A DNA stretch of 64,000 nt from a virus: positions 1 through 64,000 of the IMG/VR virus record IMGVR_UViG_3300005264_000040; one strand, given 5' to 3'. The position numbers and the translations under genes were made by a program. Numbering within the stretch: the stretch's first letter is position 1; every line of letters begins with the position of its first letter. Of the stretch, positions 1,646 to 62,332 are shown one piece after another. The notes beneath the pieces were generated by a model, which saw only the letters and a program-made list of their open reading frames with translations, made no database searches and had not been told where the DNA came from.

Positions 1646-3274
1646 ATGGACCAGGAAGGAAGGCAACGCCTAATAAAAAAATTATCTTCTGCTATAAAAA
1701 AAGCAAAAGGACTTGGAGTTATAGGATTGAAATATAGTCCTCAAAATAAGCAAGACGCCTTTTACAATATATGGTTACAAAAGATGCAGTTTGCAATATC
1801 CGCAAAGTTAAAAGCACCTGCAGCTATCACTTTTAATCATCATAAAAATAAATTTGTACTCTTTATTAATCCTTTAATGGCCTGGGCTTTCATACAAGCA
1901 GCATGGGAATATAAAGGAAACAGTGGAGAACCTGATGAAGAATTCACAGCATCTATTTTCAGAGGTTTTATTAAACATGAAATTCTTCATGGAGCATTAA
2001 AACATGTTTTTCTTTCTAAAAGAAGGACAAATCATGAACTGTCTAACATATGTCAAGATGCAATAATTAACCTAATGGTTGAAGAAATGGATAAACATGT
2101 ACCAAATGATTCAATAGAGGCGCACCTTGGTTTGGCACCATTTGAAATAGAGGCTCTTATTAAAGGTGTAAAAGGTTGGAAACTTTATGCTGAAAAGAAG
2201 GATCCAGCTTGGGAGGATTTATATGATTTTTATATAGAAAGAATGCCACCTCAACCTGAATCAAATGATGAAGAAGATGAAAATCAAGGTGGTGGCAGTG
2301 GTGAAGGTCAAGAAGGGACAGGACAAAACGGAGACCATGAAGGAAAAAGTAAAGGTAAAGGGCAAAGTTCTAAAAATGATGAAGGTGGCGATCAAGATAA
2401 AAAAGAAGATTCTGGAGGAGGTCAAGGGAATGATAAAGAGGGACAACCCACGCCCGAAGATGTAGAAGAAATAACAGATGAAATAAGAAAACAACTTCAA
2501 GAATTCGGAGAATTAGATGAAGAAGATGTAAGCGCAGATATAGAAGAACAAGCAGTTAAAGGTCAAGGAGTAAGACCAGATGCTGAAAGTGCTGCACAAG
2601 AAAAAATGAATGAAATGAATAAAGAAGCTATAAACGAACTACAACATGGAAAACTTAAAGGGGATAAACATTTTGATTGGCTTCTTAAAATATTGATAAA
2701 AGTTACCAAGAAAAGAATAAATTGGAGAAAATTATTAAAGAAAGCTGTGGTTAAATGGTTTGGAGAGTATTCCGATAAAAGATATTCTTACAAACGACCT
2801 AATCGAAGAATACCACAATTCATGGGTGTTAAACAAAAACCTTCCGCAGTAAAAATGTTAGTTCTCATAGATACTTCAGGTTCTGTGTCTGATAAACTAT
2901 TAAAAATATTTTTAGAAGAAACTATAAATCTTATAAGAATAAATAATATAGATGCAAAAATCTTCTCATATGACGTGACAACAAATGAAATACCAATGAG
3001 AGCAGCTAAAGCTGGGAGAATCACCATAACCGGAAGAGGCGGTACTTCTGTAGAAGCAGCTTTAAAAGAAGTACAACAAAAATATCCGAAATTATTCAAT
3101 AAAAAAAATATGCTGTTGATATTTACAGACACATATGATGATTTTCCAGACGAAAAATATCACAGCATATTTAAACATAAAATTTTAGTAAGTACAGAAG
3201 TGGTAGATAATGTGTTTGTATCAAAAGCTAAAAGTCATGGTTTCAAACATATTATTATTTCCGAAAAAGAGTAA
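1646..3274 (+). CDS. DUF2201-like putative metallopeptidase + VWA domain protein (AAA partner)
   Basis: HEILH (HExxH), acidic Gly-rich linker, MIDAS DTSGS, GRGGT, IFTD. Confidence 0.85.
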   Translation: MDQEGRQRLIKKLSSAIKKAKGLGVIGLKYSPQNKQDAFYNIWLQKMQFAISAKLKAPAAITFNHHKNKFVLFINPLMAWAFIQAAWEYKGNSGEPDEEFTASIFRGFIKHEILHGALKHVFLSKRRTNHELSNICQDAIINLMVEEMDKHVPNDSIEAHLGLAPFEIEALIKGVKGWKLYAEKKDPAWEDLYDFYIERMPPQPESNDEEDENQGGGSGEGQEGTGQNGDHEGKSKGKGQSSKNDEGGDQDKKEDSGGGQGNDKEGQPTPEDVEEITDEIRKQLQEFGELDEEDVSADIEEQAVKGQGVRPDAESAAQEKMNEMNKEAINELQHGKLKGDKHFDWLLKILIKVTKKRINWRKLLKKAVVKWFGEYSDKRYSYKRPNRRIPQFMGVKQKPSAVKMLVLIDTSGSVSDKLLKIFLEETINLIRINNIDAKIFSYDVTTNEIPMRAAKAGRITITGRGGTSVEAALKEVQQKYPKLFNKKNMLLIFTDTYDDFPDEKYHSIFKHKILVSTEVVDNVFVSKAKSHGFKHIIISEKE

Positions 3275-3369
3275 AACGTCGCAAACCCACTATTCAAAGG
3301 GGTGCATTTGACGTTCAACGGTCCTATTATATATATATAATAGAGTCGTTACCCGTCATTTGCACCCCT
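3273..3369. repeat. Nested palindromic element, copy 1 of 3
   Basis: GGGGTGCA..TGACG..CTATTATATATATATAATAG (3324-3343)..CGTCA..TGCACCCC; near-identical copies at 43468 and 62225. Confidence 0.95.
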
Positions 3370-3510
3370 AACGTTTCAGCTCTATAAGCGAGTTTTAGAA
3401 AATTCAAAACGTCTGAAATGAAGTACAATTTTACTAGAAAGGAGGTTTTACATTATGAAATAGAACAATAGAAATGCTCCAAACATCGCTATAAAGAGGA
3501 TTAGAGATAT

Positions 3511-3545: not shown

Positions 3546-3609
3546 ATATTTAAAATGTTAAATATTAAGCCACATCCATCTTTACACCACACACAAATCA
3601 AAGAAAAGG

Positions 3610-4035
3610 ATGTGGTCAAAGATGAATAAGTTTTTTAAAATTGTTATGGAAGTATTAGAGGATGAAAAAATTGCACCATTATTAGTAGGAGGGTTAGCAT
3701 ATGCAGCTATGCGTTTTGCTACAGTATCAGATCATAAAATACCTTTAGCCAACAATTCATATTCTCAACCGAAAAAACAATCATTTAATCATGAAAAAGT
3801 TTATGATTGGCTGAAAATTATAATAACAGATATGATAAGGACAGGAGAATTACCAAAAATGAATTTCTATGATGTTGTAAGAATCGCAAAAGATGCTGGT
3901 GCAACATTTAGAGATTGGCAAACTGTATATGAACAAGTGAATTTTAAAAACAAAAAGCATGACAGAGTGTATAAAAAAGCAGTAGAACATTTCTATAAGA
4001 GAAGGATAAGTAATGGAAGGTACGAACTTGAATAA
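3610..4035 (+). CDS. Hypothetical protein with short N-terminal hydrophobic segment (alternative start 3622)
   Basis: 141-aa ORF; start region lies inside hairpin CCACATCC(3570-77)/GGATGTGG(3608-15). Confidence 0.75.
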   Translation: MWSKMNKFFKIVMEVLEDEKIAPLLVGGLAYAAMRFATVSDHKIPLANNSYSQPKKQSFNHEKVYDWLKIIITDMIRTGELPKMNFYDVVRIAKDAGATFRDWQTVYEQVNFKNKKHDRVYKKAVEHFYKRRISNGRYELE

Positions 4036-18136: not shown

Positions 18137-18250
18137 TTGACAAAATAAAAAAAATATTGTATAATAAATTAAAGCGGTGTTTCCCAGCCATAAATGGGAG
18201 CCAAACATTGTAATTTTAGTTACAGGGCTCGCAGACGTGCGAGCCCTTTT
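18137..18250 (+). ncRNA. Consensus promoter driving a ~80-nt putative small RNA
   Basis: TTGACA-N17-TATAAT (18137-18165); hairpins TCCCA/TGGGA and TGTAA/TTACA; terminator GGGCTCGCA/TGCGAGCCC+TTTT; no SD-led ORF. Confidence 0.6.
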
Positions 18251-19209: not shown

Positions 19210-19239
19210 TTAGCAATTCATAATAAAATATGTTATAAT
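19210..19239 (+). promoter_or_regulatory. TTAGCA-class promoter
   Basis: TTAGCA-N18-TATAAT with TG; same geometry at 62447 and 4132(-). Confidence 0.55.
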
Positions 19240-19596: not shown

Positions 19597-19806
19597 ATGA
19601 AAAGAGAGGTTATAAAAAATGCAGTATTTGGACAGTTGGTTAAGAAAGCTGCATTAGTAAAAACAAAAGAAGAGAATGGTGTAGATACATTAGTCAAAAG
19701 AGCATCCTTAAAAAGAGAACAAACTACAGAGGGAAGGGAATTAATTAAAAATGCAACTTTTGGAGCATTAATAAAGGTAGCGATGAATAAAGCTAAAGGG
19801 GAGTGA
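19597..19806 (+). CDS. Small KxA-motif protein with internal repeat
   Basis: REVIKNAVFGQLVKKAA / RELIKNATFGALIKVA. Confidence 0.7.
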   Translation: MKREVIKNAVFGQLVKKAALVKTKEENGVDTLVKRASLKREQTTEGRELIKNATFGALIKVAMNKAKGE

Positions 19807-21146
19807 AATTTATGCAAGATGAAATAATAGTAGCGTTACAAAAAATAGCTGCAAGCGATCCTCGTGGTGAATGGACAAAAGAAAAAAAAATAAAAAAAAG
19901 TGATGTTGAACTCCCAAAGGAATCTAAAGTGGTAAGTTTTTTTAAAAATTTATTCACTCCTAAAAAACAAGAACCACAGCAAAAAGTAATAAATAAAGCT
20001 ACTGCTCCTTCAAAAACATCTGCAAGTTTAACTGCAGGGAACCTCGGCTATAACAAATTGACAAATTCTCAAAAAAAAGAATTCAACTATAAAAGCGAAT
20101 TAAGAAATTTAAAAAATCAATTAAATGATGGAGATATAAGTAGAGCAGAATACGCTAACAAAATAAGATCTTTAGAAACACAACATTCGAATTATTTAAA
20201 AGAACAAAATAAAATATTAAAAGAACAGAAAATAGAAAGGAAGCAAAAAGCATTAAAAAGTCCGGAATACAGAGCAAGTCATACTAATAATGCAAAAAAT
20301 CTAACAGCACTAACAGCAGGTGCTGGAGCCAAACCTTTAACGAAAGGTCAAGAATTAAAAGCTAAAGCAAACGAAATTACACCTATTAAGTTTAATTATA
20401 TAACAGGAGATAAAAATAAAGTAAAAAAAGCTTTGAACAAAATAAAAGAAAAGGATAAAATAGACAGAGTAAAATCTAGAAATAAAGAATATTGGAAACA
20501 ATATGAAAATTACTGGAAGAAAAAGACAGTAAGTGGGACTTCAAACAAAAATCTAGCTACAGGATTATCAGTAGGGAATTTAACAGGGAAAAAACCTAAT
20601 ATTGACAAAATAAATAAAGTAAATAGAATAGCTGCAAACAAAGATTATAAAGAAAAATTCAAAGCAAAGAAACCAGCAGGTACCTCTAATTCTAACATTG
20701 CAGCTGCATTTACCGCTGGTACAGGAACAACTTCAACGAAACCTCATGCAAAAATAAAAAAAGAAATGCAAATTCAAGGATTGAAAAATAGAATAAAAGA
20801 AATACCATCTAAATTAAAAGAAATAGGAAAAACTACAATAAATAAAACAAAAGAAACATCTCAAAAAGCAATTAACTATGCAAAAGAACATCCTAAAGAA
20901 ACTGCTGCTGCAGGAGCAGGTGCTGCAGGTTTAGCTGCATTAGGTACAGCAAGCGCAATTGCTTCAAAAAGAAGAAAAGCTCGAGAAGCAGCAAGATTAG
21001 CTCAGTTAGCAAAAAAGAAAAAAATGATCAGAAGAGGAGGAATAGCAGGAGCCGCATTAGCAGGTGGAGCTGCTTTGACTTCTTATATTTTAAAGAAAAG
21101 GAAGAATAATGAAAGGAAAAAGGAGGAGGCAAAAAATAATGCATAA
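19803..21146 (+). CDS. Basic KxA-motif protein, putative virion internal protein
   Basis: LQKIAAS; C-terminal KKKKMIRRGGIAGAALAGG module. Confidence 0.7.
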   Translation: MKFMQDEIIVALQKIAASDPRGEWTKEKKIKKSDVELPKESKVVSFFKNLFTPKKQEPQQKVINKATAPSKTSASLTAGNLGYNKLTNSQKKEFNYKSELRNLKNQLNDGDISRAEYANKIRSLETQHSNYLKEQNKILKEQKIERKQKALKSPEYRASHTNNAKNLTALTAGAGAKPLTKGQELKAKANEITPIKFNYITGDKNKVKKALNKIKEKDKIDRVKSRNKEYWKQYENYWKKKTVSGTSNKNLATGLSVGNLTGKKPNIDKINKVNRIAANKDYKEKFKAKKPAGTSNSNIAAAFTAGTGTTSTKPHAKIKKEMQIQGLKNRIKEIPSKLKEIGKTTINKTKETSQKAINYAKEHPKETAAAGAGAAGLAALGTASAIASKRRKAREAARLAQLAKKKKMIRRGGIAGAALAGGAALTSYILKKRKNNERKKEEAKNNA

Positions 21147-21636
21147 AAACATTTTGCTTAAATTAGCTAGCGGACCTATATATCCTCCAGGAACTACTGA
21201 AGAACAAAAAAAGAAAATTAATGATTATTACGCAAAATCATATTTACTCTTAAATAAAAAAGATATTGCTAAACCAGAAAGGTTACCAGATATACGAGAA
21301 AAAAAACCAGAAGTTGAACTAATTACTAAAATAAAAGAAAATACTAATAAACTATTAAGCGGAGTAAAAAATAAAATAAATAATATGTCTGATAACGATA
21401 AAAAGAAAGCAGCAATAACTTCTGCAGGAGTTGGCGCAATAGGAATAGGAAGTTTAGCTGCAGCAAAACACAAAGCCAAGAAAAAAGCTAAAGCTGCTGA
21501 ACTAGCTAAACTTACCAAGAAGAAAAAACTTCTAAAAGGAGGAATAGCAGGGGCTGCTTTAGCAGGTGGTAGTGCATTAGCAGCTTATGCTTTGAACAAA
21601 AAAAAGAAGAAAGAGGAGGCAAAAAATAATGTATAA
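21139..21636 (+). CDS. Basic KxA-motif protein (true start 21139, MHKNILLKLAS)
   Basis: GAGGAGG SD before ATG 21139; same C-terminal module. Confidence 0.7.
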   Translation: MHKNILLKLASGPIYPPGTTEEQKKKINDYYAKSYLLLNKKDIAKPERLPDIREKKPEVELITKIKENTNKLLSGVKNKINNMSDNDKKKAAITSAGVGAIGIGSLAAAKHKAKKKAKAAELAKLTKKKKLLKGGIAGAALAGGSALAAYALNKKKKKEEAKNNV

Positions 21637-22825
21637 GAACAATATAATTAAGTTAGCAGATATAGGAGGCTCAGCATTATATAACACCAAAAAAGTTCCA
21701 GCTATTCAAAGAAAACTAGATGAAGCCGAATACGAAATGGAAGATAATCTATCTAGGAAATTACATAAAATAAAAAAATTTGTTTCTAAAAATATGCAAA
21801 AAGCAAAAGAAAAATTAATTGAAGAACCAAAAAGAAATGCTAAAAATTTACAAATATCTAATTCAAGTGTAGCTGCTTTAAAGCACAAAACTAAAGGCCC
21901 TTCAAAAACAGTCAGTGATTTTAAAAGAAAAGTAGATGAAGCTGCTTATAAAGCAAAAGATTTTGCTTCTAAAAATAAGGATAAAGCTGCAGTTGCTGGT
22001 GCAGGAATAGCAGGTATAGCAGGTCTTTCTATGCTTAGTAAAAAAAATAAAGCAAAAAAAGCTGCTGAATTAGCTGCTTTAGCAAAAAAGAAAAAAATGA
22101 TCAGAAGAGGAGGAATAGCAGGAGCTGCTTTAGCAGGCGGTAGTGCATTAGCAGCTTATGCTTTGAAAAAGAAAAAATCTAAAAAAAAACAAGAAAAAAC
22201 AGCTAGTTACGTAATACCAGCTATAAAAGGAGCTCTCGTAGTAGGAGGACTTGCAGCAGCTCACGTTGCTGATAAAAAGAATCAAGCCAAAGCTATGAAA
22301 TTAGTAAATGATATATTCGAAGAAGGTGTAAGAACAGGAAGAAAAAAAGGTTTTAGAAATGGAGTATTAGCAGGAACAGGTGCTGGTGTTGGAACCACTT
22401 TAACTGCTTTAGGTATTTCTAAAACAAGAAATAAAAAAGGAAACAATAAGAAAAAGAAGGAATTGCAACAAAAAAAGAATACATCATTAAAGAAGTCAGC
22501 CGCAGCTACCTTAACAAATGATGAATTACAAAAATTATTAAATGTAAAAAAAGAAAACATGGAAAGAATGCAAAAAACTGTAAAAGAAATAGCACCAAAT
22601 GGTGCTGCTCCGGTAGCAGGATTAGGATTAGGTCTTAGAGGCGGAGCAGGATTAGGATTAGGCAATATAGGAAGACCTAGAAGAGGTAGAGGTTTAGCTG
22701 TTGGTTTAGGTGCTGGTGCTGGTGCAGGTACAGGATTAGGCGCTTTAGCATTGTACAATTTAAGCAAAAAAGAAGAAGAAGATAAATCCAATAAAAAGGA
22801 AGACAAAAAAACCTCAAAAAAGTGA
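21629..22825 (+). CDS. Basic KxA-motif protein with several Gly/Ala hydrophobic helices
   Basis: IIKLAD, QEKTASY, LKKSAAA; shared module. Confidence 0.7.
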   Translation: MYKNNIIKLADIGGSALYNTKKVPAIQRKLDEAEYEMEDNLSRKLHKIKKFVSKNMQKAKEKLIEEPKRNAKNLQISNSSVAALKHKTKGPSKTVSDFKRKVDEAAYKAKDFASKNKDKAAVAGAGIAGIAGLSMLSKKNKAKKAAELAALAKKKKMIRRGGIAGAALAGGSALAAYALKKKKSKKKQEKTASYVIPAIKGALVVGGLAAAHVADKKNQAKAMKLVNDIFEEGVRTGRKKGFRNGVLAGTGAGVGTTLTALGISKTRNKKGNNKKKKELQQKKNTSLKKSAAATLTNDELQKLLNVKKENMERMQKTVKEIAPNGAAPVAGLGLGLRGGAGLGLGNIGRPRRGRGLAVGLGAGAGAGTGLGALALYNLSKKEEEDKSNKKEDKKTSKK

Positions 22826-22836
22826 GGATGATATAA

Positions 22837-23475
22837 ATGGAAACTATTTTGGATAAAATTTTAAGTCAGAAAATGAATGAAGGATACATTCTAAAAAACG
22901 AAATGAAAAAGGAAGCCGGGATTTTCGGCTCTCTGAAAAATGTTGCAAAAGGTGTAAGGCGATGGACAAAAGCACCTTACACTAAATTTAATCCTCAAAG
23001 AGCTTCAACTTATGAATTTGCAAATTCAATAAAAATGAATAAATATAAACAAAGATTACTTAGAAAGAAAAATAGATTAGATGCGCAAAAAACACGTAAA
23101 TTATCACAACAATTTTATTTGGACCCAGCAAAAGTTGATAAATATCAAAAAACACAAATGAAAAAAAAGATATTAGGACCTTATTATAAACCTAAAAATA
23201 CAACAACTACACCAAAAAACAATATTCCAACGCCACCAAAAAATCCCACAGCAACACCACCACCAAATGCACAAGCTGGTAATACCAACGTGGGACATTC
23301 CGCAATACAAAGTGCTTTAAATACGATTAAAAAAAGACCAGCTGTATCTGCAAGTGCTTTATTGACAGCTGGCACATTAGCAGGACAAGCATACGGTTCT
23401 TATAAAGAAAGACAAATACAAAAAGAAATGCAAAAGTATCAAAATCCTACCGGAAGAAGAATACTTATAGTTTGA
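22837..23475 (+). CDS. Basic KxA-motif protein
   Basis: MKKEAGIFG; Pro/Thr linker; C-terminal hydrophobic helix. Confidence 0.7.
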   Translation: METILDKILSQKMNEGYILKNEMKKEAGIFGSLKNVAKGVRRWTKAPYTKFNPQRASTYEFANSIKMNKYKQRLLRKKNRLDAQKTRKLSQQFYLDPAKVDKYQKTQMKKKILGPYYKPKNTTTTPKNNIPTPPKNPTATPPPNAQAGNTNVGHSAIQSALNTIKKRPAVSASALLTAGTLAGQAYGSYKERQIQKEMQKYQNPTGRRILIV

Positions 23476-23513: not shown

Positions 23514-23572
23514 ATATAAATAAATCAAGATTTATTGGTATATATATAGTAATTTATTATAAAACACAGGAG

Positions 23573-24250
23573 GTGTTTAACATGGATAATACTTTTTTTG
23601 AAGAAAATATAGTTGGGATTCTCATTGAGGATCCCAAAATTTTTAGAAAGGAGGTGAAAAAGAACGGAATGATAGACCAAGAGTTTGTGGCACAACTAGC
23701 TAAGTATATTGTCACCCAACTCCAAAAAGATGAACCTATTTTTATAAAAGGGGAGGACGACTATTATGTTGATTACGAATACTATCGTCCTTCAACTTTA
23801 TTGCATTTGAAAAACCCAAAAGCGTTTAATTCGATGTTGGAAAAAATGATTAATTATGCAAGAAAGAGACTCCCGAGGATTGAAAGAGACTTTATTGTAG
23901 ATTTAATTGTAAAAGTACAAAGAGATTTTATAAGCCCATATAATTTCTTGATTGGTATTGATAATTATTTATCCGCAAACTACGATTATGAATCGTTCTA
24001 TACTGACGAAGAATTCGAAAGATTAGAAAATAGTATTTTAGAAAAAGAATCTGAAATTATAAGAACTAACAACAAAGAAGATTTCCTAAATTGGACTGAT
24101 AAAGGAGAGTTTATACCAGCATGGTATATCAACGATCGAATCGACGGTTTCTTTTATAAGTTCTTCAAAGATGTATATGATTACGACTATGACAATTCTA
24201 ATTTTGACTTCTGGGACTTTTTAGAAAGAAGAAGAATTTGGTATTCATAA
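23573..24250 (+). CDS. Hypothetical protein
   Basis: 225-aa ORF, GGAGG SD, GTG start. Confidence 0.7.
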   Translation: MFNMDNTFFEENIVGILIEDPKIFRKEVKKNGMIDQEFVAQLAKYIVTQLQKDEPIFIKGEDDYYVDYEYYRPSTLLHLKNPKAFNSMLEKMINYARKRLPRIERDFIVDLIVKVQRDFISPYNFLIGIDNYLSANYDYESFYTDEEFERLENSILEKESEIIRTNNKEDFLNWTDKGEFIPAWYINDRIDGFFYKFFKDVYDYDYDNSNFDFWDFLERRRIWYS

Positions 24251-24281
24251 GTATGTTTATAAATAAAAAAGGAGGTGAAAA

Positions 24282-24326
24282 ATGGAGAGTATTTTTACTC
24301 TCAGTTTCCATGGGTTGAGAGTATGA
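24282..24326 (+). CDS. Micro-ORF unit 1 (MESIFTLSFHGLRV)
   Basis: Perfect SD plus ATG; translation unproven. Confidence 0.35.
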   Translation: MESIFTLSFHGLRV

Positions 24327-24405
24327 TTCTCATAAGCTTTTTTAAAAAGGTAGCTTAATCAAAGCGGGTTCCGCTTTATTATTTTATAAATAAGGAGGTG
24401 TCCTT

Positions 24406-24447
24406 TTGAAAAGAAACGCAATGTTGCTTTCGCAACATATCTCATAA
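24406..24447 (+). CDS. Micro-ORF unit 2 (MKRNAMLLSQHIS, TTG start)
   Basis: Perfect SD plus TTG; translation unproven. Confidence 0.3.
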   Translation: MKRNAMLLSQHIS

Positions 24448-24555
24448 AGCATCCGGTCATTCTTTGTGTGGTGTAAAAGATGGATGGTTGGATGCGAATA
24501 AAAAAATCCGCGAGCGGTTTCCGCTCTTTTTTATTATATAATAAAGGAGGTAGAT

Positions 24556-24615
24556 ATGAAGAATTTGATTAAAAGTTCAGCTCTTGAACTTTTAAACTTG
24601 ATAAGTACTTTTTAG
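24556..24615 (+). CDS. Micro-ORF unit 3 (MKNLIKSSALELLNLISTF)
   Basis: Perfect SD plus ATG; translation unproven. Confidence 0.4.
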   Translation: MKNLIKSSALELLNLISTF

Positions 24616-24672
24616 TAGTAAAGTTTTGGGAGTGGTTTCCACTCCTTTTATTATATAACAAAGGAGGGAGAT

Positions 24673-24708
24673 ATGAGTAGATTGCTCAAAAGTTCCTACA
24701 ATCTGTGA
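24673..24708 (+). CDS. Micro-ORF unit 4 (MSRLLKSSYNL)
   Basis: Perfect SD plus ATG; translation unproven. Confidence 0.35.
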   Translation: MSRLLKSSYNL

Positions 24709-24799
24709 GAGAACTTTTGTCTAATAAGTACTACTTTAGTAGTAAGTAGAAACGTGCGGATTCCGCATATTATTTATAAAAAAAGGAGGATGATAAAAG

Positions 24800-25357
24800 A
24801 TGGCAAAATTAAAGGTATTACCAGCAGGAGAAGCAAGTTATATAAGGAAAGACAAGCAAAACTATTATGTAGAGAATTGCTTGTTGAATTGGGCATACAG
24901 TTTAAACCCTAAAACAATAGGAATAACAAGAGTAGAAGGTACAGATGTATATGCTTTAGTGATAGATGGATATGTAATCAGGCCAACAGAGCATCCAATG
25001 TTCTATGAGGTTTTAGAGGAAAAATGTGATGATGCAATAATCATAGAACAAAACAAAGAAAACGAACCTGTCAAAATCAATTCTAAAATCCTTTTGAGAT
25101 CAGAAGGTATTCCGGAGGTTAATGTTGTAAAACATATTAATACTATGTTCGTTACTGTAGATTATGGCAAAAAAGAAGATACTATATTAGTACCTATTAC
25201 AACAAAAAGAATTGTTCTCGGTGCTGCAAGTATTAGAGGTGTATATTATTATTACGAAATAAAAGATGATATTATAAGCACAAAAATAATTCCAGCATCA
25301 GCAGATCTAAATTTGGAAGATATAAAATTATTATTAGAAGAAAAAGGAAATCTTTAA
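24800..25357 (+). CDS. Hypothetical protein
   Basis: SD AAGGAGG. Confidence 0.75.
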   Translation: MAKLKVLPAGEASYIRKDKQNYYVENCLLNWAYSLNPKTIGITRVEGTDVYALVIDGYVIRPTEHPMFYEVLEEKCDDAIIIEQNKENEPVKINSKILLRSEGIPEVNVVKHINTMFVTVDYGKKEDTILVPITTKRIVLGAASIRGVYYYYEIKDDIISTKIIPASADLNLEDIKLLLEEKGNL

Positions 25358-25380
25358 AACAAAAAAGGAGATGGTGAGGT

Positions 25381-26019
25381 ATGATGAAAAATAGTATAAT
25401 TAACCAAATGATAGGAGATGTAATAAAAGTTTATGAAGGAAAAGAATATTTTTATGAGGTTGTAGAAGCAGAATGGGTAGAAAATCCAAGGCAATATGCA
25501 GATGCTTCGTATTTTTATATGAGCCATAGGAACTATGATTTTGGAGATAACATATCTCTAGATACTTCTGATTGTTCCTCTTGGGAAGATGTAAAAGAAA
25601 TAATTGAAAAAGAGTATAACGTGTTTGCTATTTTACCTGTTTATATGTATGATCATTCAGGAATTACAATAAATACAACAGGATATTCTTGCGGTTGGGA
25701 TAGCGGACAAATAGGTTGGATCTGGATGACTAAAGAACAAGCAATGGAATATGGATATAAAACGAAAAAAGAAGCAGAATTATTTTTAGAAACCGAGATT
25801 GCTACACTTGACAAGTATCTCACAGGAGATGTATATGAAATAAGAATGAGAAGCAAAAAAGACCCAACGGAAACTGATACATATATAGGATACATTTATG
25901 GTTGGGAAGAAACTTTAGCTGAGATACCAAAAACCGCAAAAGAAATAAAGAAAAGTGATTATAAAGACAAATTTGAAGTTGAGGTGAAAATAGTATATGT
26001 AGATGAAGAGGAGGAATAA
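25381..26019 (+). CDS. Hypothetical phage protein
   Basis: YMYDHSGITI..SCGWDSGQIGWIW motif, a pattern I recall from uncharacterised phage proteins. Confidence 0.7.
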   Translation: MMKNSIINQMIGDVIKVYEGKEYFYEVVEAEWVENPRQYADASYFYMSHRNYDFGDNISLDTSDCSSWEDVKEIIEKEYNVFAILPVYMYDHSGITINTTGYSCGWDSGQIGWIWMTKEQAMEYGYKTKKEAELFLETEIATLDKYLTGDVYEIRMRSKKDPTETDTYIGYIYGWEETLAEIPKTAKEIKKSDYKDKFEVEVKIVYVDEEEE

Positions 26020-26022
26020 TAA

Positions 26023-27027
26023 ATGAGAAGAATAATGGAATATGCCGGACGTATAGCTTATACGTCCGGCTATACTTTTATATTTGATGATATGAAATTT
26101 AAACTTTCTAAAAGAGTTACATCTTTTTATATAGATAAGTTTCATTCCTTTGTATTTTTGAATTCTAAAGATGAAACTTTGATATTAAATTTATCAACAG
26201 GAAAAATAGAAGGTACCTTGCCTCCAGCAACTAAAATAAGAACCTCTCCAACAAAGATTTATCTAATGCAAGGAAAAGAGGTTGTAAATGTTTATGACAA
26301 GTTTTTGTTAAACAGAATATATCAATATTCAATGTCAAAAAATAAATTATTCAAAGATTTTGATATATCTATAAGGTATATCGCGAGCCCAGATGAAGCG
26401 TTATTTATATATGATGGAGATAAAGTCTTGTATTGGAAAGATTATTTGACTTATCCATTAGAAGCAGACACAGCACCATATCCTGCTCAAGCTTCAGAAA
26501 TGTTTTCGGCAGGAGAATCTGTTAATATTTTGGATAAGAAACACGCAAAAATAGATTGTTATTCTTCGCTGTCACATCAAAAAGATACAAGTTATTCTAT
26601 TTCTTATTTTGAACATGAAATTGTTGATGCAAAGTTTGTTGAAGGTTATTTGAAAAATAGATTATTAGGATTAGTTATTGAAAGAAGATATCTTGTGTTG
26701 TATTTTAATGCAGACCCAATAGGTTCTGTAAATTTTCATATAAAACCTTATTATTCTTCTGATTTTCCCATTGCATTAGCGAACTTTGAACATTTAAAAA
26801 TATTAGATATACAGTATAATTTTTACAATGGATTTGTTGTAGCGTTATTACATGAAACAGATGAAGATGAATATTTCTTTTTTATAGCTCACAAAAACGA
26901 ATTCTTTAACTATAAAAAAATAATAGCAGCTAATAAATTAGATGGTAGATACGCCATAGACTTAAAAGAGATTGTAGTATGGCGAGGAGGGAAAATAAAA
27001 CGTATTCCATTAAAGGAAGGTGATTAA
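26023..27027 (+). CDS. Aromatic-rich hypothetical protein (possible beta-propeller-like)
   Basis: 334 aa, short beta-strand-like segments. Confidence 0.65.
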   Translation: MRRIMEYAGRIAYTSGYTFIFDDMKFKLSKRVTSFYIDKFHSFVFLNSKDETLILNLSTGKIEGTLPPATKIRTSPTKIYLMQGKEVVNVYDKFLLNRIYQYSMSKNKLFKDFDISIRYIASPDEALFIYDGDKVLYWKDYLTYPLEADTAPYPAQASEMFSAGESVNILDKKHAKIDCYSSLSHQKDTSYSISYFEHEIVDAKFVEGYLKNRLLGLVIERRYLVLYFNADPIGSVNFHIKPYYSSDFPIALANFEHLKILDIQYNFYNGFVVALLHETDEDEYFFFIAHKNEFFNYKKIIAANKLDGRYAIDLKEIVVWRGGKIKRIPLKEGD

Positions 27028-27030
27028 AAT

Positions 27031-27609
27031 ATGGTAAGAGTTCTTGAAGATCTTGCATGGATGGTGAGTGTTATATACGAAGGTGAAGAATCACTAATAT
27101 TTGATGAAAGTTTTGCAAGGTTCATTCGTGAAGAAAATGGTCGTTATGGGAATTATTTTAAATTGATAAAAGATAAAATAGGTTCGCAGAAAAAGTTTGG
27201 AATAGATGATTATTACTTTGAAATACCAAATCTTATTTTGAATGGAATAATAGTAAGTTATAATCCTGGAATAAATTACGAAAAAAAAGTAGCGTTAAAT
27301 GGCAATCCGCAGATTTTTGATCCTTTAATATTAGGGACAAAAACTTTTTATTTATTAAAGCTTAAGGGGGAATTTGAAGTTGTTGAAGGAAATAATGTTG
27401 TAGCTGCAACTTATAGCAAAGACGATATGTACAAAGTTTATAAATTCGATGTTCCATATATTATTGTAATAGAAGGAGATCATTTGTTTTATGTAGATTT
27501 TATATCAAAAACGTCAAGGTACTTAAAACAAATGCCGGGTTTTAGTCCTGGAGATTATTTATTGTTGCACGAAGAAGGAGGTTTTGATAAATGGAAGAAC
27601 TTAAATTAA
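27031..27609 (+). CDS. Hypothetical protein
   Basis: 192-aa ORF. Confidence 0.7.
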   Translation: MVRVLEDLAWMVSVIYEGEESLIFDESFARFIREENGRYGNYFKLIKDKIGSQKKFGIDDYYFEIPNLILNGIIVSYNPGINYEKKVALNGNPQIFDPLILGTKTFYLLKLKGEFEVVEGNNVVAATYSKDDMYKVYKFDVPYIIVIEGDHLFYVDFISKTSRYLKQMPGFSPGDYLLLHEEGGFDKWKNLN

Positions 27610-28682
27610 TTCAAGCAATAGAACCAAGGCCTACTTTAGGATTCTTTGATTATCATTTCCCGTTTTATCTACAAAACAACAAATTATATCTGATTACAAA
27701 TGTTCCTATAACTAATGTTATGGGTTTTATAATAGATATTGATACTTTAGACTTTTCATATTTAAAAATTCCTGAAGTAGATTATATTGTTTCAATTTCA
27801 GAAATAGCCAGAAACCCATATGATAATATGTTATATGCAATATTGAATCCTAATGAAAACATTGATGACAATGAAATTACTTATTATACACAAAAGATTA
27901 TCAATATCGAAAGTGGATTCTGTTATGAAACCAAAATGACATTAAATGAAGAACTAATGTTTTCACGTATAGTTAAGTATGACATTCCAGGCTACAAGTT
28001 TATGTGGGGCTTTTTTAAAAACAAAGCTAAGAAAATAGCACAACTTTATGATTTATTTGGAAGGCCTCTGTCACCTGTTTTGCAACTTCCTTTAAAAGAT
28101 GTTGCAAGCAATGGATTATACATAAAAAATAATAAGATTTACGATTTGTTTCAACAAAAGTTTGTATCTCCCGAATTAAAATATATGACAGGGAAGAATA
28201 AAATGAAAAATATAGAAATAGTCAGAGTAAATACAGGTTATTATGTAATAGGGACTATAAAATATAGTGGAAAACGAATTCCTATAGTCCAATATACTGA
28301 CGGAGAATATATTTCTACTAAACTAATAGACGATATTGAATTTGAAAAAATAAAAGTATATCGAATAGGACATGACGCAATTTGGGTTGGACTGGATAAT
28401 CAAAAATATGGATATATTTTCAAACCAAATATATTTGGAAAACCCATGAGATTCCCAGGGAGTATAAGTTTCTTAGGATTAGATAAAAAAGGAAGATTTC
28501 TTGCTTATAGAGTTATAAATGGAACGCTTGAACTTTATATAGAAGATAAATGGTATTATTATGATTTAGGTTCATATCAATACATTTTTGATGAAAAATA
28601 TAAAATTTTCTTGTATAAAAAAAATGTATATCTTTTCCTTGGAAATACAGATGAAATGGTAACACTCAAATTGTCAAAATGA
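27591..28682 (+). CDS. Aromatic-rich hypothetical protein
   Basis: 363-aa ORF. Confidence 0.7.
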   Translation: MEELKLIQAIEPRPTLGFFDYHFPFYLQNNKLYLITNVPITNVMGFIIDIDTLDFSYLKIPEVDYIVSISEIARNPYDNMLYAILNPNENIDDNEITYYTQKIINIESGFCYETKMTLNEELMFSRIVKYDIPGYKFMWGFFKNKAKKIAQLYDLFGRPLSPVLQLPLKDVASNGLYIKNNKIYDLFQQKFVSPELKYMTGKNKMKNIEIVRVNTGYYVIGTIKYSGKRIPIVQYTDGEYISTKLIDDIEFEKIKVYRIGHDAIWVGLDNQKYGYIFKPNIFGKPMRFPGSISFLGLDKKGRFLAYRVINGTLELYIEDKWYYYDLGSYQYIFDEKYKIFLYKKNVYLFLGNTDEMVTLKLSK

Positions 28683-28696
28683 AGGAGGCATAAAAA

Positions 28697-29761
28697 ATGA
28701 TATTACCATCTGTTAAACCTCTTACGTCAATTGAAGCGGGTAAGCTATTTTATTATGGTGAAACAAAAGACTACCTGCTTTTTAACTCGTTTCCTTATTA
28801 TAATTTATCGAAAGTATATATAATGAACAAAGAAACATATGATTTCAGAATAATAGCTGAATCTGTAATTGCAGCACGAATAGACACATATCATGGCAAC
28901 GCTCTTTTTTATGTTCAAATTAGAGAAGGGATACCACACATGATATGGCATGATTTGCTTACTGATAAAAGCATTGTTCTTGGCAAAGAAACTAAACTTC
29001 CTTACGACATCAACAATTGTTATATGATAACAAATGAGAATATTGTAGTGCATCATCAATCAATATCTACAAATTCACTATTGCATTTTGATTATAATTT
29101 TGAATATAAAGGTTCTGAAGATTTTGAAAAGCTATCAACAGTATCTCCTTCATATTACATGGGAGGAGAATTTGTTTATAGAGATAAAACTAAAGCATAT
29201 TATAAAGGTTATACTGTAGAACTTGGAACTACGTATTTTCTTGGAGAAGTCTTTGAACGAGGAAATTATATTATTATAAAAGCAACACCTAAAAATATGT
29301 TTTCTGTTTTTAAATATAGAATATTCTTTATAAATAAGCTTACACAAGAAATAACAATCAGAGATGTAATTTCAACTGATTGGATTTTTAAAGTAGAAGA
29401 ACGCATATCTGAATCAAACTATATTGCTGCAAATGTAAAAAAAACAAAAAACGATCTTGAAGTAGTATTGTTCAAAATTGATGATTTGATAAAAGGAAAC
29501 TATATTTATGAAAAATTCGAACCAAAATTTGCAAAAGCATGTTATAAAAATGACGTTTATGGATACGAAATGAAGGACCCACTTAAATCAAATCTTTTAA
29601 CTATATATGAAAATCAAAAACCATATGTCAAAATAAGCTTAGATCCACTTGTTGCAAAACAACACATGCATACACAAATTCAAACATTTTCCACTCCAAT
29701 AGGACTATTGTTATATTATCATGGTGAAAATTACGGAACATTCTATATTATTGATAAATAA
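28697..29761 (+). CDS. Aromatic-rich hypothetical protein
   Basis: 354-aa ORF. Confidence 0.7.
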   Translation: MILPSVKPLTSIEAGKLFYYGETKDYLLFNSFPYYNLSKVYIMNKETYDFRIIAESVIAARIDTYHGNALFYVQIREGIPHMIWHDLLTDKSIVLGKETKLPYDINNCYMITNENIVVHHQSISTNSLLHFDYNFEYKGSEDFEKLSTVSPSYYMGGEFVYRDKTKAYYKGYTVELGTTYFLGEVFERGNYIIIKATPKNMFSVFKYRIFFINKLTQEITIRDVISTDWIFKVEERISESNYIAANVKKTKNDLEVVLFKIDDLIKGNYIYEKFEPKFAKACYKNDVYGYEMKDPLKSNLLTIYENQKPYVKISLDPLVAKQHMHTQIQTFSTPIGLLLYYHGENYGTFYIIDK

Positions 29762-29767
29762 TTATGA

Positions 29768-29905
29768 TATAATAAAAGAAAGGGAGGTGGAAATTCTATA
29801 GGTTAATACCTTCAGGCATAGCGTTATAAGCTCTCTCGTAGAGGTTGAAAAAAAAATCTTAGCTGCGGATACCGCAGCTTTTTTTATTTTAAAAAAAAAG
29901 GAGGG
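29768..29905 (+). ncRNA. Dispersed fifth copy of the array-type structured unit
   Basis: TG-TATAAT, GGAGG, AGGT/ACCT hairpin, ATAAG (29826), CTCT/AGAG hairpin, AGCTGCGG-ATA-CCGCAGCT+T tract, next SD. Confidence 0.5.
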
Positions 29906-35751: not shown

Positions 35752-35760
35752 TATTATAAT

Positions 35761-35793
35761 ATCGGGTGACTTTTATACTGTCACCCGATTTTC
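35761..35793 (+). terminator. 10-bp hairpin, terminator-like, upstream of the RT operon
   Basis: ATCGGGTGAC-N9-GTCACCCGAT then TTT. Confidence 0.55.
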
Positions 35794-35837: not shown

Positions 35838-36638
35838 ATGATGAGAACCAAATTTGATTATAAAATAATGAGGAAAAGGAATCGTGATGGGATCTTACCT
35901 CTTTATGATGAAACAAAATTATCTAAAAGTTATATTGATATATTCGATAAATTATCTACTAACTTTTTCAACGACACTACAATATCTTTAGTATCTTATA
36001 AAAGAACTATTTTAAAATTGAACTATGGGCACATAGTTGCTGTAGTGCAAATTGATACATTTAGAAACCCAATCAAAATAAAATTCTATGTAACTATGGT
36101 AAATATCGTAAAAAGAAAAGTTGTATATAAATCTGTGCAAGAAATTAATTCTGAAAATGAGTATGAAATATTTGGGCCTTTGTATCGACACATAGCAGGA
36201 GTTTTCAGCGCAGCATATAACCTTAATAATCCAAAATATTCTAACTGCAAATTGATTATACCACAAAACAATGCTTTTGTGCAAGTGCTTTACTCAAAAA
36301 ATAGAATAAAATCTTTAAAATTAATGGGAACTTATGAAGAAAAAGGTACAAAAGAAAGTACAATCATGAAAGATGCAGATACTATCCTAATCACAAGTAA
36401 GAAAAACGGCTTGTTAATTTTAAAGAAAGGTGATATAGTAAAAAACGTTAAAGAAAAAATAAGTAATTTTACTGATGAACATTTAGTGTGGGTAAAAGAA
36501 AATAACGGATTTTTATCAGTAGTATATTGGGATGCAAAAACTTATAATAAAGGAAAATATAGTCTCAAATTTAAACCTACTGAACTTACTGTAGAAGATT
36601 TAATTCTTGCACAAAAAGGAGATGAGGATATTGGTTGA
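35838..36638 (+). CDS. Hypothetical protein immediately upstream of, and overlapping, the RT
   Basis: 266-aa ORF. Confidence 0.75.
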   Translation: MMRTKFDYKIMRKRNRDGILPLYDETKLSKSYIDIFDKLSTNFFNDTTISLVSYKRTILKLNYGHIVAVVQIDTFRNPIKIKFYVTMVNIVKRKVVYKSVQEINSENEYEIFGPLYRHIAGVFSAAYNLNNPKYSNCKLIIPQNNAFVQVLYSKNRIKSLKLMGTYEEKGTKESTIMKDADTILITSKKNGLLILKKGDIVKNVKEKISNFTDEHLVWVKENNGFLSVVYWDAKTYNKGKYSLKFKPTELTVEDLILAQKGDEDIG

Positions 36639-37626
36639 AACTAAAGAAAAGATGATATATGGAATTCAAACCATACCACAATTTGCGGGGTTCCTGCAAG
36701 AGTATCCACAAACTGTTACTTGGATTGAAAAAGTAAAACCCAGGTTATATAATGAGTTTAAAATTCCAAAACACAAAGGTGGATTTAGAAGCATCTCTAC
36801 ACTTGTAAAAAAGGACAATGAAGTTATTGTTCTTAAAAGAATCCAAAGAAAAATAAAGGAAAAAATAATTGACAATATAATATTTCCTGATTCTGTACAT
36901 GGATTTGTAAAAGGTAAAGATATTTATACTTGCGCAAAAGTTCATTCAGGCCATCATATTGTTGTATCTTTAGATATAAAAGATTTTTTTGATAGTATAA
37001 AAGCTGGAAGATTAATTCCGTTGTTCCAGAATTTGTTCAATATGGAATGGCAACCAGCTTGGCTATTTGCTCAACTCGTAACTTTTAAAGGAAGATTGCC
37101 CCAGGGTACTTATACTAGCCCTGGAATTTCTAATTTATATATGTATTATTTTGATTTGTATATGGACGAAACATTTAAAGAATCTGGTATGACCTATACC
37201 AGATATGCTGATGATATTACTTTCTCTGGTGATTTTTCCAAGGAGGAAGCAAAAGAATATATTAAATTCATAAAAGCAGAACTGCAGAAATTAGGTTTAA
37301 AACTTAATAAAAAGAAGACTAAAATATATGAGAAACCAGCAAAGCAAATTGTATTAGGGATGGTTGTAAATGATCATCCAAATATTTCAAGAGAAGAAAG
37401 GTTTTTACTAAAAGCTATGATTTATAATTTTGTTCATAAACACATTATAAATATAGATTATACAACAGATCCCAAAAAATATAAAAGAATACTTATGGGT
37501 AAAATAAATCATGTGCTTCATGCAAATCCAAATTTAGCTACTTTCATCAGATATAAAGAAGAGTTAAGGAAGTTAGATCCAAATAAAATTAAAGACTGGA
37601 ATTTGATGACTTATAAGGAGGGTTGA
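36607..37626 (+). CDS. Retron-type reverse transcriptase (start probably TTG near 36631 or ATG near 36652)
   Basis: FKIPKHKGGFRSI, HGFVKGK..CAKVH (region X), LDIKDFFDSI, LPQGTYTSPGISN, YTRYADDITFSG, VLGMVVN (region Y variant), GKINHV. Confidence 0.92.
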   Translation: MHKKEMRILVETKEKMIYGIQTIPQFAGFLQEYPQTVTWIEKVKPRLYNEFKIPKHKGGFRSISTLVKKDNEVIVLKRIQRKIKEKIIDNIIFPDSVHGFVKGKDIYTCAKVHSGHHIVVSLDIKDFFDSIKAGRLIPLFQNLFNMEWQPAWLFAQLVTFKGRLPQGTYTSPGISNLYMYYFDLYMDETFKESGMTYTRYADDITFSGDFSKEEAKEYIKFIKAELQKLGLKLNKKKTKIYEKPAKQIVLGMVVNDHPNISREERFLLKAMIYNFVHKHIINIDYTTDPKKYKRILMGKINHVLHANPNLATFIRYKEELRKLDPNKIKDWNLMTYKEG

Positions 37627-37630
37627 AATT

Positions 37631-38686
37631 ATGGAGGTAGTTTTATATACATCAAAGGAATATCCTTTACTTTCATTAAGAGGAAAATTCCCAAATGGTA
37701 AAAATTTTGAAAGAATTGTTCTTAAAAATTATTATGTAATAGAAGAATTGATCGCAAATTTAAAAAAGCAATTTCCTTTCCAAGAAAAAAGTATATATGA
37801 ACAGATGACAATGTCTAATTTTCATTATACTAAAACTCCTAGACTTCTTTTTGAAGAGTTTGGATATGTCCAATATGAATATGGCACCACAAAAAAGTTT
37901 GTCACAGATGGTTTTTATAATTTTGGATTTATTGATTTATCATATAAAAACTTCATAAAAGATTTAAAGAAACATCAAATATATACAGAATATAATTATC
38001 TGCCTTTTGCGCTTAGTAGAATGGTTGCTTTTAGATACTTTTATACTGACGAAAACAATAATGTTGTAGCTTTTGATTTAGGAGAAGATTTTGATGTGAT
38101 TACTAAAATAAAATATGTAGGTTCTACTATCAATAGAGCACCTATTTTCTACAATATTCCAAAAGAGGATTTTGATTTTGATAAGTATAAAAGAAATCCT
38201 TTGGGAATAAATTCAGATGTGTTTTCAAATTCGTACAGAAATCCTGCAGATCTAGAGGAAGAACACCCTTTACTTCAAAAGAATGTAGTTCTAATTCAAA
38301 CCGAATATAAGTATGAACAAAATGGAATTATATGGCATATTATGTCTAAAAACAACTCCTCACAACATTTCAAAATTGCTGATATGCCTTTCCGTGCATT
38401 GTATCAACACGAAAAAACATTTTTTGAAGCAGTTAGTTTTAATGGTTATCAGATAAAAAATGGAGAATTAATATTAGATAAATTAAGAACTTTCAAAATG
38501 TTAATATCCATGGTATATGGTAACAAGAAAAATTATATGAAAGATGAATATTTTAGTAGAAAAGTACCTATGTTACACATTCCAGGACAAACAGGTGATA
38601 TTCCTGATGAAGGTTTGAAATTTATTGTGTTTCCGGATTTACCGGAAGAAGTTTTAGAAAACATTTGGGATGTAAAAAATTTTTAA
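37631..38686 (+). CDS. Hypothetical protein directly downstream of the RT (candidate partner)
   Basis: 351-aa ORF, 4 nt after RT stop, SD inside RT 3' end. Confidence 0.75.
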   Translation: MEVVLYTSKEYPLLSLRGKFPNGKNFERIVLKNYYVIEELIANLKKQFPFQEKSIYEQMTMSNFHYTKTPRLLFEEFGYVQYEYGTTKKFVTDGFYNFGFIDLSYKNFIKDLKKHQIYTEYNYLPFALSRMVAFRYFYTDENNNVVAFDLGEDFDVITKIKYVGSTINRAPIFYNIPKEDFDFDKYKRNPLGINSDVFSNSYRNPADLEEEHPLLQKNVVLIQTEYKYEQNGIIWHIMSKNNSSQHFKIADMPFRALYQHEKTFFEAVSFNGYQIKNGELILDKLRTFKMLISMVYGNKKNYMKDEYFSRKVPMLHIPGQTGDIPDEGLKFIVFPDLPEEVLENIWDVKNF

Positions 38687-42395: not shown

Positions 42396-42421
42396 TGTGA
42401 GAGTATAGAAAAAAAGTGAGA

Positions 42422-42608
42422 GCTACCCACCTGACCTGTATAATAAGAAGAGCAGGCAGGTGTGGTAGCAAGAGAGAATGAGAATGAGAGAATGAGAGAG
42501 AATGAGAGAGAATGAGAGAATGAGAGAGAATGAGTGTCATAAATAGGGAGGTAGGAGTAGCAGAGGAGCGGCTTCGGCTGCTCTTCTGGTACTCCGCCTC
42601 CTTTTTTT
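42422..42608 (+). ncRNA. GC-rich structured element: hairpin, (GA)nAT tract, 24-bp UUCG hairpin, T7
   Basis: GCTACC-CACCTG-CCTG/CAGG-CAGGTG-GGTAGC (42422-69); stem 42547-42601 with cTTCGg loop. Confidence 0.65.
42472..42531 (+). repeat. Irregular microsatellite (GA)nAT x7, n=3,2,3,4,4,3,4
   Basis: Read directly from the sequence. Confidence 0.95.
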
Positions 42609-43463: not shown

Positions 43464-43467
43464 CGAT

Positions 43468-43570
43468 CGTCGCAAATCCACTGTTCAAAGGGGTGCAAAT
43501 GACGGGCAACGACTCTATTATATATATATAATAGGACCGTTAAACGTCAAACGCACCCCTATGAATAGCG
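43468..43570. repeat. Nested palindromic element, copy 2 of 3
   Basis: Core 43515-43534. Confidence 0.95.
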
Positions 43571-43710
43571 ACTTTGAGGTACTTTTTGGGTACTGTAATG
43601 CACCTCGAAATTACCATTTTTTCCAAAAATAACTCCAACAGAGAAAAATCTTTAAAATTACGATGGCTGTAATAGGCATAGAAAGTATCTTACAGAAGAA
43701 CAATATATCA

Positions 43711-62167: not shown

Positions 62168-62224
62168 TCCCTTGTGGGACTTTTTTTTTACCATGTGCAC
62201 TAAAAATATAGGAACGTCTGTAAC

Positions 62225-62332
62225 CCGCTATTCATAGGGGTGCGTTTGAGGGGCAACGACTCTATTATATATATATAATAGGATCGTTAAACGTCATTTG
62301 CACCCCTTTGAATAGTGGATTTGCGACGTTTT
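62225..62332. repeat. Nested palindromic element, copy 3 of 3 (outer flanks inverted relative to copies 1 and 2)
   Basis: Core 62262-62281. Confidence 0.95.

Follow-up and report, generated by a model that had tools for sequence, protein, structure and literature searches.

A phage-private tandem family of structured mini-cistron cassettes that most likely act as RNA

Introduction

In the hbs transcript of Bacillus, a ribosome initiating at a strong Shine-Dalgarno (SD) sequence stops the ribonuclease RNase J1 and the RNA is unusually stable (PMC5737220), while the yrzI small-peptide operon gives rise to a ribosome-protected species whose stability likewise requires structure at the 3′ end (PMC12067863). 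Stabilisers consisting of an SD sequence only, namely STAB-SD of cryIIIA and a polypurine element of phage SP82, are listed elsewhere (PMC3997798). Herein we describe a tandem array of four small structured units, each headed by an SD sequence and closed by a terminator-like hairpin, at positions 24251-24799 of the first 64,000 nucleotides (nt; hereafter, the window) of the single-contig virus record IMGVR_UViG_3300005264_000040, whose whole genome comprises 177,768 bp at 29.5% G+C. Judged by analogy, the ribosome-protected stable RNAs of Bacillus (hbs, yrzI/spyTA, STAB-SD, SP82) appear to be its nearest functional counterparts, as in them a very strong 5′ SD, whether or not a start codon follows it, precedes a structured 3′ end, the reading frame being short or irrelevant. 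These are, however, single leaders or operons in bacteria, whereas the array belongs to a five-member phage family, four of them in tandem, with conserved internal hairpins and an AUAAG motif, for which stability and processing are predicted.

Other described systems share part of this anatomy. The PeSL elements of T4-type phages join a terminator stem-loop to an AT-rich promoter-like sequence, are repeated, bound small cassettes and recombine with one another (PMC2839356, PMC4122927). The array repeats the same composite; PeSLs, however, are short junction motifs with a functional early promoter, found in dozens of scattered copies around real open reading frames (ORFs), whereas here only the linker ahead of the third unit is promoter-like, there are four copies plus one, and what they carry is a structured unit conserved in its own right. 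Listeria LhrC1-4 and Vibrio Qrr1-5 are families of tandem small RNA (sRNA) paralogues that have their own promoters and C-rich or seed loops pairing with ribosome sites. Like the array they comprise several diverged, head-to-tail paralogues of ~100 nt with their own intrinsic terminators, but the units described here carry a ribosome site and start codon and mostly lack promoters, the phage's extended −10 element being found only at the solitary fifth unit. In phage lambda, the PR′-6S RNA-tR′ region produces a short structured transcript that ends at a terminator ahead of a promoter-less gene block. Unit 5 and a module at 18.1 kb are laid out in just this way, whereas neither a factor nor a site of the Q, N or put kind was identified for the array, and its four repeats with ribosome sites have no counterpart in the lambda checkpoint. 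Lastly, retron msr-msd RNAs are structured non-coding RNAs (ncRNAs) of ~100-200 nt that are encoded beside their RT, as a rule directly upstream, and, as here, the genome encodes a retron-type reverse transcriptase (RT); the array, in contrast, does not adjoin the RT, matches no Rfam family, lacks GC-containing a1/a2 repeats and has an SD, a start codon and a terminator in every unit.

From the sequence and predicted structure of its units, the array most likely represents four old, diverged duplicates of a phage-private RNA cassette of ~120 nt, with a fifth copy alone at 29.8 kb, that works as RNA. The evidence for this comprises a shared anatomy that exceeds chance, paralogy among all units and conservation that ignores the reading frame; all conclusions rest on five paralogues from one genome.

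Results and discussion

Four tandem units occupy the longest intergenic gap of the genome

The interval 24251-24799 contains no frame of 60 amino acids (aa) or more and, on a crude map of ORFs of at least this length, is the longest intergenic gap in the genome. Alternative genetic codes (TGA read as W, TAG as Q) gave no long frame spanning the gap, a tRNA and tmRNA scan found none, and cumulative GC skew, examined as a check for a replication origin, showed no feature at 24 kb. All real genes near the array are on the plus strand. Within the gap, positions 24269-24782 are taken up by four head-to-tail units that follow a single order from 5′ to 3′: AAGGAGG, the ribosome site usual in this genome; a start codon that lies 5-7 nt further on and opens a frame of 11-19 codons; one or more internal hairpins; ATAAG or, in unit 2, ATAAAG; another hairpin; a terminator-like hairpin with a three-base loop, the core GG-NTT-CC and a T-rich tail; and an AT linker of ~15 nt (Table 1). 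The linker sequence TTATTATATAATAA is a perfect palindrome, and intergenic occurrences of this motif are found only inside the array. An original prediction, made by a model from the DNA letters and a list of ORFs, had given this four-unit layout together with coordinates, stem sequences and micro-ORF lengths, all of which proved correct.

Table 1. Units of the cassette family and the features that frame them
Feature	Position	Strand	Description
Unit 1	24269-24391	+	SD 24269-75; ATG 24282, 14 codons, stop 24324-26; hairpins 24285-24302, 24316-24332 and 24333-24355; ATAAG 24332-36; terminator 24361-24377; AT linker
Unit 2	24392-24543	+	SD 24392-98; TTG 24406, 13 codons, stop 24445-47; hairpin 24421-24438; ATAAAG 24444-49; long hairpin 24449-24495; terminator 24512-24526 between A- and T-runs; palindromic linker
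Unit 3	24544-24660	+	SD 24544-50; ATG 24556, 19 codons, stops TAG TAG TAA from 24613; 11-bp hairpin 24569-24595; ATAAG 24601-05; small hairpin 24606-24617; terminator 24628-24646
Unit 4	24661-24782	+	SD 24661-67; ATG 24673, 11 codons, stop 24706-08; hairpin 24688-24718; ATAAG 24724-28; hairpin 24729-24744; terminator 24754-24768 (weak); linker that runs up to the gene-24800 SD
Unit 5 (solitary)	29761-29886	+	Extended −10 TGATATAAT 29765-73; AGGGAGG 29780-86; hairpin; ATAAG 29826-30; hairpin; strong terminator 29861-29879; then SD and gene 29912
Nearest upstream canonical promoter	19231-19239	+	TTAGCA, 18 nt, TGTTATAAT; likely source of transcripts entering the array
Downstream block	24800-29761	+	Six orphan genes, no evident promoter of their own

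The anatomy and clustering of these elements exceed chance. All four units have a start codon at SD spacing (p ~0.001-0.003), and four of the seven places in the genome where AAGGAGG is followed by a start codon and a frame of at most 30 codons lie in the array. Each of the four 3′ hairpins passes a scan for intrinsic terminators (GC-rich stem, short loop, T-run) and is thus predicted to terminate transcription; those of units 2 and 3 are good, with stems of 6-8 bp and five GC pairs followed by TTTTTT or TTTTATT. Terminator-like sites numbered 11 in a 3-kb scan against 1.2 expected, and of ~20 plus-strand hairpins with a GC stem and T tail in 178 kb, four are found inside 410 nt of the array.

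Folding is stronger than that of shuffled sequence, to a modest degree per unit (z −1.7 to −3.6 for whole units; −2.45, −1.99, −0.87 and −1.89 for the successive unit bodies minus terminator), and a sliding fold of the entire genome consistently placed the array windows 1-3.3 standard deviations (sd) on the structured side of the G+C trend, with other regions far more extreme. The most structured and G+C-rich stretch of the genome lies outside the window, at the right genome end (175,100-177,700), where G+C reaches 40-51% and folding lies 4-6.7 sd beyond the genome trend.

The units are paralogues and have a fifth, solitary relative

All pairs of units align better than shuffled sequences (z 2.3-10.3), units 3 and 4 being the closest. 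The 50-nt junctions ahead of these two units are 84% identical and make up the only repeat family in the array; the units differ throughout, which upholds the earlier view that this is not a CRISPR array.

A whole-genome search with a covariance model built from units 1-4 (R1) returned one further full-length match, unit 5, with 35.5 bits and an E value of 3.6e-4, and nothing else significant. Unit 5 lies ~5 kb from the array and differs from its members in that the extended −10 promoter motif of the phage lies ahead of it and that its SD-like box has no start codon or frame behind it. The terminator apex, GCGG-ATA-CCGC, is related to that of the array. Across the family, an SD or SD-like box and a 3′ hairpin are thus present in five of five units and a start codon in four of five. 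In the R1 alignment, the array linker TTATTATATAAT is aligned with TTATGATATAAT of the unit-5 promoter.

A related arrangement is found at 23553-23669, where the start of gene 23582-24250 resembles a unit fused in frame, with AGGAGG, ATG, an 11-bp terminator-like hairpin (23613-23637), a T-run and AAAGGAGGTGAAAAA, the last being identical to the head of unit 1; R1 scores 23.2 bits at this site. This module may be the source of the units, or the start of the gene may be mis-assigned.

Repeats of this kind could also be non-functional scars of duplication, in which unequal recombination at similar terminator-linker-SD junctions, much as with PeSLs, left behind empty or decayed gene cassettes. 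The 84% identity of the junctions ahead of units 3 and 4 would fit such an origin, as would the in-frame SD, hairpin and AAAGGAGGTGAAAAA module of gene 23582 and the occurrence of the same succession of terminator hairpin, ~15 nt of AT and SD ahead of ordinary genes at ~17.7, 29.9 and 53.1 kb. However, units 1 and 2 have diverged far from units 3 and 4, yet the SD, start codon, hairpins, ATAAG and terminator apex have all been kept, and neutral decay should have erased such features. We therefore regard scars as a doubtful, decidedly unlikely explanation.

Conservation follows the RNA rather than the reading frame

Units 3 and 4 can be aligned independently of structure, and between them the 3′ arm of hairpin 1, the ATAAG motif and hairpin 2 are conserved despite an 8-nt difference in the loop and an early TGA in unit 4, such that conservation continues in another frame and past the stop codon. 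Over the eight alignable N-terminal codons, by comparison, there are three replacements and one silent change. Hairpin 1 of these units differs by one compensatory change, from T-A to C-G, as the original prediction had it, and terminators aligned on their invariant apex show compensatory variation at three pairs. The broader assertion that pairing is kept while primary sequence diverges held for units 3 versus 4 and for the terminator apex, the only places where the alignment does not depend on structure and covariation is therefore true, but not for units 1 and 2, which have hairpins of unrelated sequence at similar positions; what these two have in common with units 3 and 4 is, on our reading of the alignments, a shared architecture and not strict covariation. 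Unit 2 contributes a different kind of evidence, as its long hairpin includes three consecutive G-U pairs that fit plus-strand RNA only, since they would be mismatched on the other strand or in DNA.

The mean micro-frame length of 14 codons is near the random expectation of 11.8. Together with the frame-independent conservation of units 3 and 4, the compensatory changes, the G-U pairs and the frameless unit 5, this suggests that selection has acted on the structure of the plus-strand RNA and on the initiation of translation rather than on the peptides. The earlier suggestion of selection at the RNA level is thereby supported.

The competing suggestion, that the units are true genes for four micro-peptides of 11-19 aa, every one of them served by a separate ribosome site, is weakened by the same data, although the perfect SD-to-start spacing in four of four array units continues to speak for it. 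Every frame is at least 11 codons long (p ~0.03), and a functional small peptide, S1025 of the yrzI operon, is known in Firmicutes (PMC12067863). Nevertheless, the peptides have nothing in common except L-[IL]-K-S-S, which is shared by units 3 and 4 at the place of a stem arm, and conservation runs beyond the stop codon and across a change of frame. Frame lengths near the random mean, a fifth unit with no frame at all and a terminator behind each gene of 11-19 codons, which would be unusual, likewise argue against peptides, and we consider this explanation quite unlikely. The peptides are also not hydrophobic and so do not resemble type I toxins. A type I toxin-antitoxin array of the Ibs/Sib kind was accordingly rejected as a candidate; the SIB_RNA match, at 14.4 bits (E 5.8), fell short of the gathering score of 56.

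The array has no canonical promoter and precedes six orphan genes

The phage promoter consensus, TTAGCA-N17-TATGnTATAAT, was derived from 31 clear sites by gene starts on both strands, and is typical of a low-GC Gram-positive sigma-A promoter with an extended −10, which hints at the type of host. With this consensus and a scoring matrix made from these 31 promoters, no canonical plus-strand phage promoter was found between 19234 and 29768, the next being the unit-5 promoter at 29765. The array is thus probably co-transcribed with upstream genes, as part of a long plus-strand operon. For the six downstream genes, which have no evident promoter of their own, transcription would have to run through all four hairpins. 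Pfam and PHROGs searches with ten neighbouring proteins returned nothing useful.

Among the linkers, the one ahead of unit 3 scored 12.2 and ranked 40th genome-wide; its TATAAT is perfect, but TATT replaces TATG and a −35 is lacking. Transcription directed by this hexamer would begin within the SD. The linkers before units 2 and 4 scored 0.7 and that before gene 24800 scored −4.4, while no window ending before unit 1 exceeded −7. The −10-like hexamers of these other linkers are TATAAA, TATAAC and TATAAA, and none has a −35 or TG element.

These scores bear on the proposal that the array comprises four independent sRNA genes, each with a weak promoter in its AT-rich linker and its own terminator, whose products would base-pair with targets in trans. 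The Listeria LhrC1-4 set mentioned above is a precedent for sRNA paralogues in tandem, and the extended −10 of unit 5 is positioned to start the RNA at the SD-like box, with the array linker aligning with that promoter in R1 and the unit-3 linker in 40th place on the promoter matrix. Against it, three of the four unit linkers, as well as the linker before gene 24800, score below 1, with hexamers that lack the final T and have neither −35 nor TG, and the unit-3 start site would cut into the SD.

Unit 2 provides a lead to a possible target. Positions 24465-24486, the loop and 3′ arm of its hairpin, are complementary at 21 of 22 positions, with one bulge, to 3573-3593 near the start of gene 3610, and binding could open the hairpin over that start region. 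The leader at 3569-3616 folds into a significant hairpin (z −3.55), with a 3′ arm that spans the GGATG at the start of gene 3610/3622 and with 3573-3593 as 5′ arm and C/A-rich loop; pairing between the unit-2 loop and this 5′ arm and loop has a geometry that would suit an activating antisense RNA. In dinucleotide-shuffled arrays, however, an equally good match was found anywhere in the transcriptome in 337 of 400 cases and inside a translation-initiation zone in 51 of 400, and so the complementarity is not above chance and is to be taken as a lead, not a finding. The other units have no target comparable to that of unit 2. Ranking all start regions against unit 2 with RNAduplex was dominated by the GC content of the target and was uninformative. 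A 19/20 match of unit 1 to 142.9 kb was discarded, as it reflects same-sense similarity in a minus-strand gene block and not complementarity to a transcript. Taken together, we find four independent sRNA genes an unlikely reading of the array.

The position of the array ahead of a promoter-less block also invites a purely cis-acting explanation, in which tandem regulated terminators or attenuators would time the six-gene block by means of read-through, brought about either by a phage antiterminator or by a translation-dependent switch, much as at lambda tR′/6S or in a leader-peptide attenuator. The phage has at least two modules in which a promoter is followed by a short structured RNA, a strong terminator and a gene, at 18137-18250 and 29765-29879. 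In unit 1, GAGAGTA and TACTCTC repeats allow an alternative fold, and a ribosome halted at the stops of unit 3 (24613-21) would adjoin the terminator stem that begins at 24628. On the other hand, alternative folds were seen in unit 1 only and do not involve its terminator; by inspection, which was not a systematic search, we noticed no structure in competition with the four terminators. The distance from stop codon to terminator varies from 12 to 65 nt and is not conserved, the frames have no obvious run of regulatory codons and no antiterminator gene was identified. Processive antitermination, moreover, could work without a hairpin module repeated ahead of every terminator. Cis-regulation as the sole function therefore seems unlikely.

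The 18137-18250 module just mentioned has a perfect TTGACA-17-TATAAT promoter, a frameless structured RNA of ~80 nt and a strong terminator (18224-18247), followed by gene 18292. The order of promoter, short RNA, terminator and gene is that of unit 5, and the module has no match to the unit model.

A proposed terminator barrier that may also yield ribosome-capped small RNAs

Tentatively, and with less than firm confidence, we favour a reading in which the array would hold transcription back step by step at its terminators and, by analogy with the Bacillus RNAs, would also give rise to small RNAs protected by an initiating ribosome at the 5′ end and by a hairpin at the 3′ end. Transcripts from the 19.2-kb promoter would meet four intrinsic terminators in series, and this barrier would lower or gate expression of the six downstream genes. 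At each unit, a ribosome initiating at the SD and start codon would block the 5′ exonuclease RNase J1, the terminator hairpin would block 3′ exonucleases, and cleavage in the AU-rich linkers would release several stable RNAs of ~110-150 nt, of which the conserved hairpin-AUAAG-hairpin body may be the working part. The precedent of ribosome capping would explain why an SD and start codon are kept without a conserved peptide, why unit 5 has an SD-like box without a start codon and why the linkers are AU-rich. That the cassette gives rise to several small RNAs, as originally proposed, is plausible in this light, whereas the accompanying idea of decoy RNAs is pure speculation.

Several points weigh against this combination. 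The terminators of units 1 and 4 are weak, with stems of 5-7 bp and interrupted T-runs, and the fact that all frames reach 11 codons is a weak hint that some coding length has been kept. The presence of RNase J1 in the host is an assumption made only from the low-GC Gram-positive type of the phage's signals. Furthermore, a barrier could do without an SD, a start codon or internal hairpins, and stabilisation could do without a start codon; it is our inference that ties one half of the model to the other.

A bolder version would have the promoter-less array give rise to a private family of ribosome-capped, terminator-sealed small RNAs whose hairpin-AUAAG-hairpin bodies act in trans in the course of infection, perhaps by titrating an RNA-binding factor of host or phage or initiating ribosomes, or by antisense activation as with unit 2 on the leader of gene 3610. 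We consider a trans-acting family of this kind distinctly improbable; if true, it would represent a new class of phage regulatory RNA.

If the units are stable RNAs, the phage would be using the ribosome as a 5′ cap to obtain long-lived small RNAs from a polycistronic transcript, and these would belong to a structured RNA family with no Rfam match or homologue in the collections searched. If the array is mainly a four-step barrier, it would be a regulatory checkpoint ahead of six orphan genes and, with the modules at 18.1 and 29.8 kb, would suggest termination control as a main timing device in this phage lineage.

The array lies apart from the reverse transcriptase and has no match in the databases searched

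The original prediction had raised the possibility that the units are templates or primers, equivalent to msr-msd, for the RT encoded at 36607-37626. The RT is of the retron class (RVT_1, 7e-27; PADLOC RT_III-A, 1.7e-69), while scoring below the cut-offs of the NCBIfam retron models, and no obvious ncRNA lies beside it. It is found in a tight cluster of three genes (35838-38686), and only 86 nt separate the first ORF of this cluster from the preceding gene, with a hairpin at 35758-35792 within them. The palindromic linkers of the array could in principle pair like a1/a2 repeats.

However, the RT lies 11.8 kb downstream of the end of the array at 24782, with more than a dozen ORFs between, and other structured non-coding elements, for example 42396-42608, are nearer to the RT. 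The inverted repeats flanking the units are AT-only, and units that begin with ribosome sites and end in terminators do not have the anatomy of a retron ncRNA. Rfam searches of the whole window at gathering score and of the array at E values up to 10 gave sub-threshold matches only, the best being SpR08 on the minus strand (32.6 bits against a gathering score of 80), and no retron msr was recognised among the matches to the array. We take Rfam 15 to hold retron msr models. Nothing in the sequence links array and enzyme, the idea that one serves the other is without support, and we consider it extremely improbable.

The ORFs that flank the RT, of 266 and 351 aa, are orphans, with no match to a defence-system or NCBIfam model for either.

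Searches for relatives were equally negative. The region had no nucleotide match among phage records, and no relatives were found among viral (IMG/VR) contigs with both flanking proteins and PolA. A homologue search with the 185-aa flanking protein in the protein collection returned only itself, and tblastn of PolA against phages gave at most 30% identity. Exact and gapped DNA patterns of the units had no match in viral contigs; in metagenome contigs there were 11 matches, all by chance and one of them an unrelated CRISPR locus; and in genome contigs the 30 matches were about the number expected by chance, none of the 21 loci scanned scoring with R1. By their sequence and anatomy the units do not resemble retron ncRNAs, and they make up neither a CRISPR nor a type I toxin array. 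They are a family of structured mini-cistron cassettes that is real, non-random and private to the phage, and they most likely act as RNA.

Other features of the neighbourhood

Directly upstream of the array, at 19803-23475, are several very basic proteins rich in Lys, Ala and Gly that have no Pfam or PHROG match. They have in common a repeated module of ~89 nt (21015, 21517, 22088) that encodes a Gly/Ala-rich hydrophobic segment. Further upstream, at 3439-3463, AAGGAGG is followed after 8-9 nt by ATG AAA TAG. This minigene of two codons recalls the bar minigenes of lambda and adjoins one of the copies of a palindromic element of ~100 bp (3274-3385, 43465-43576 and 62212-62323).

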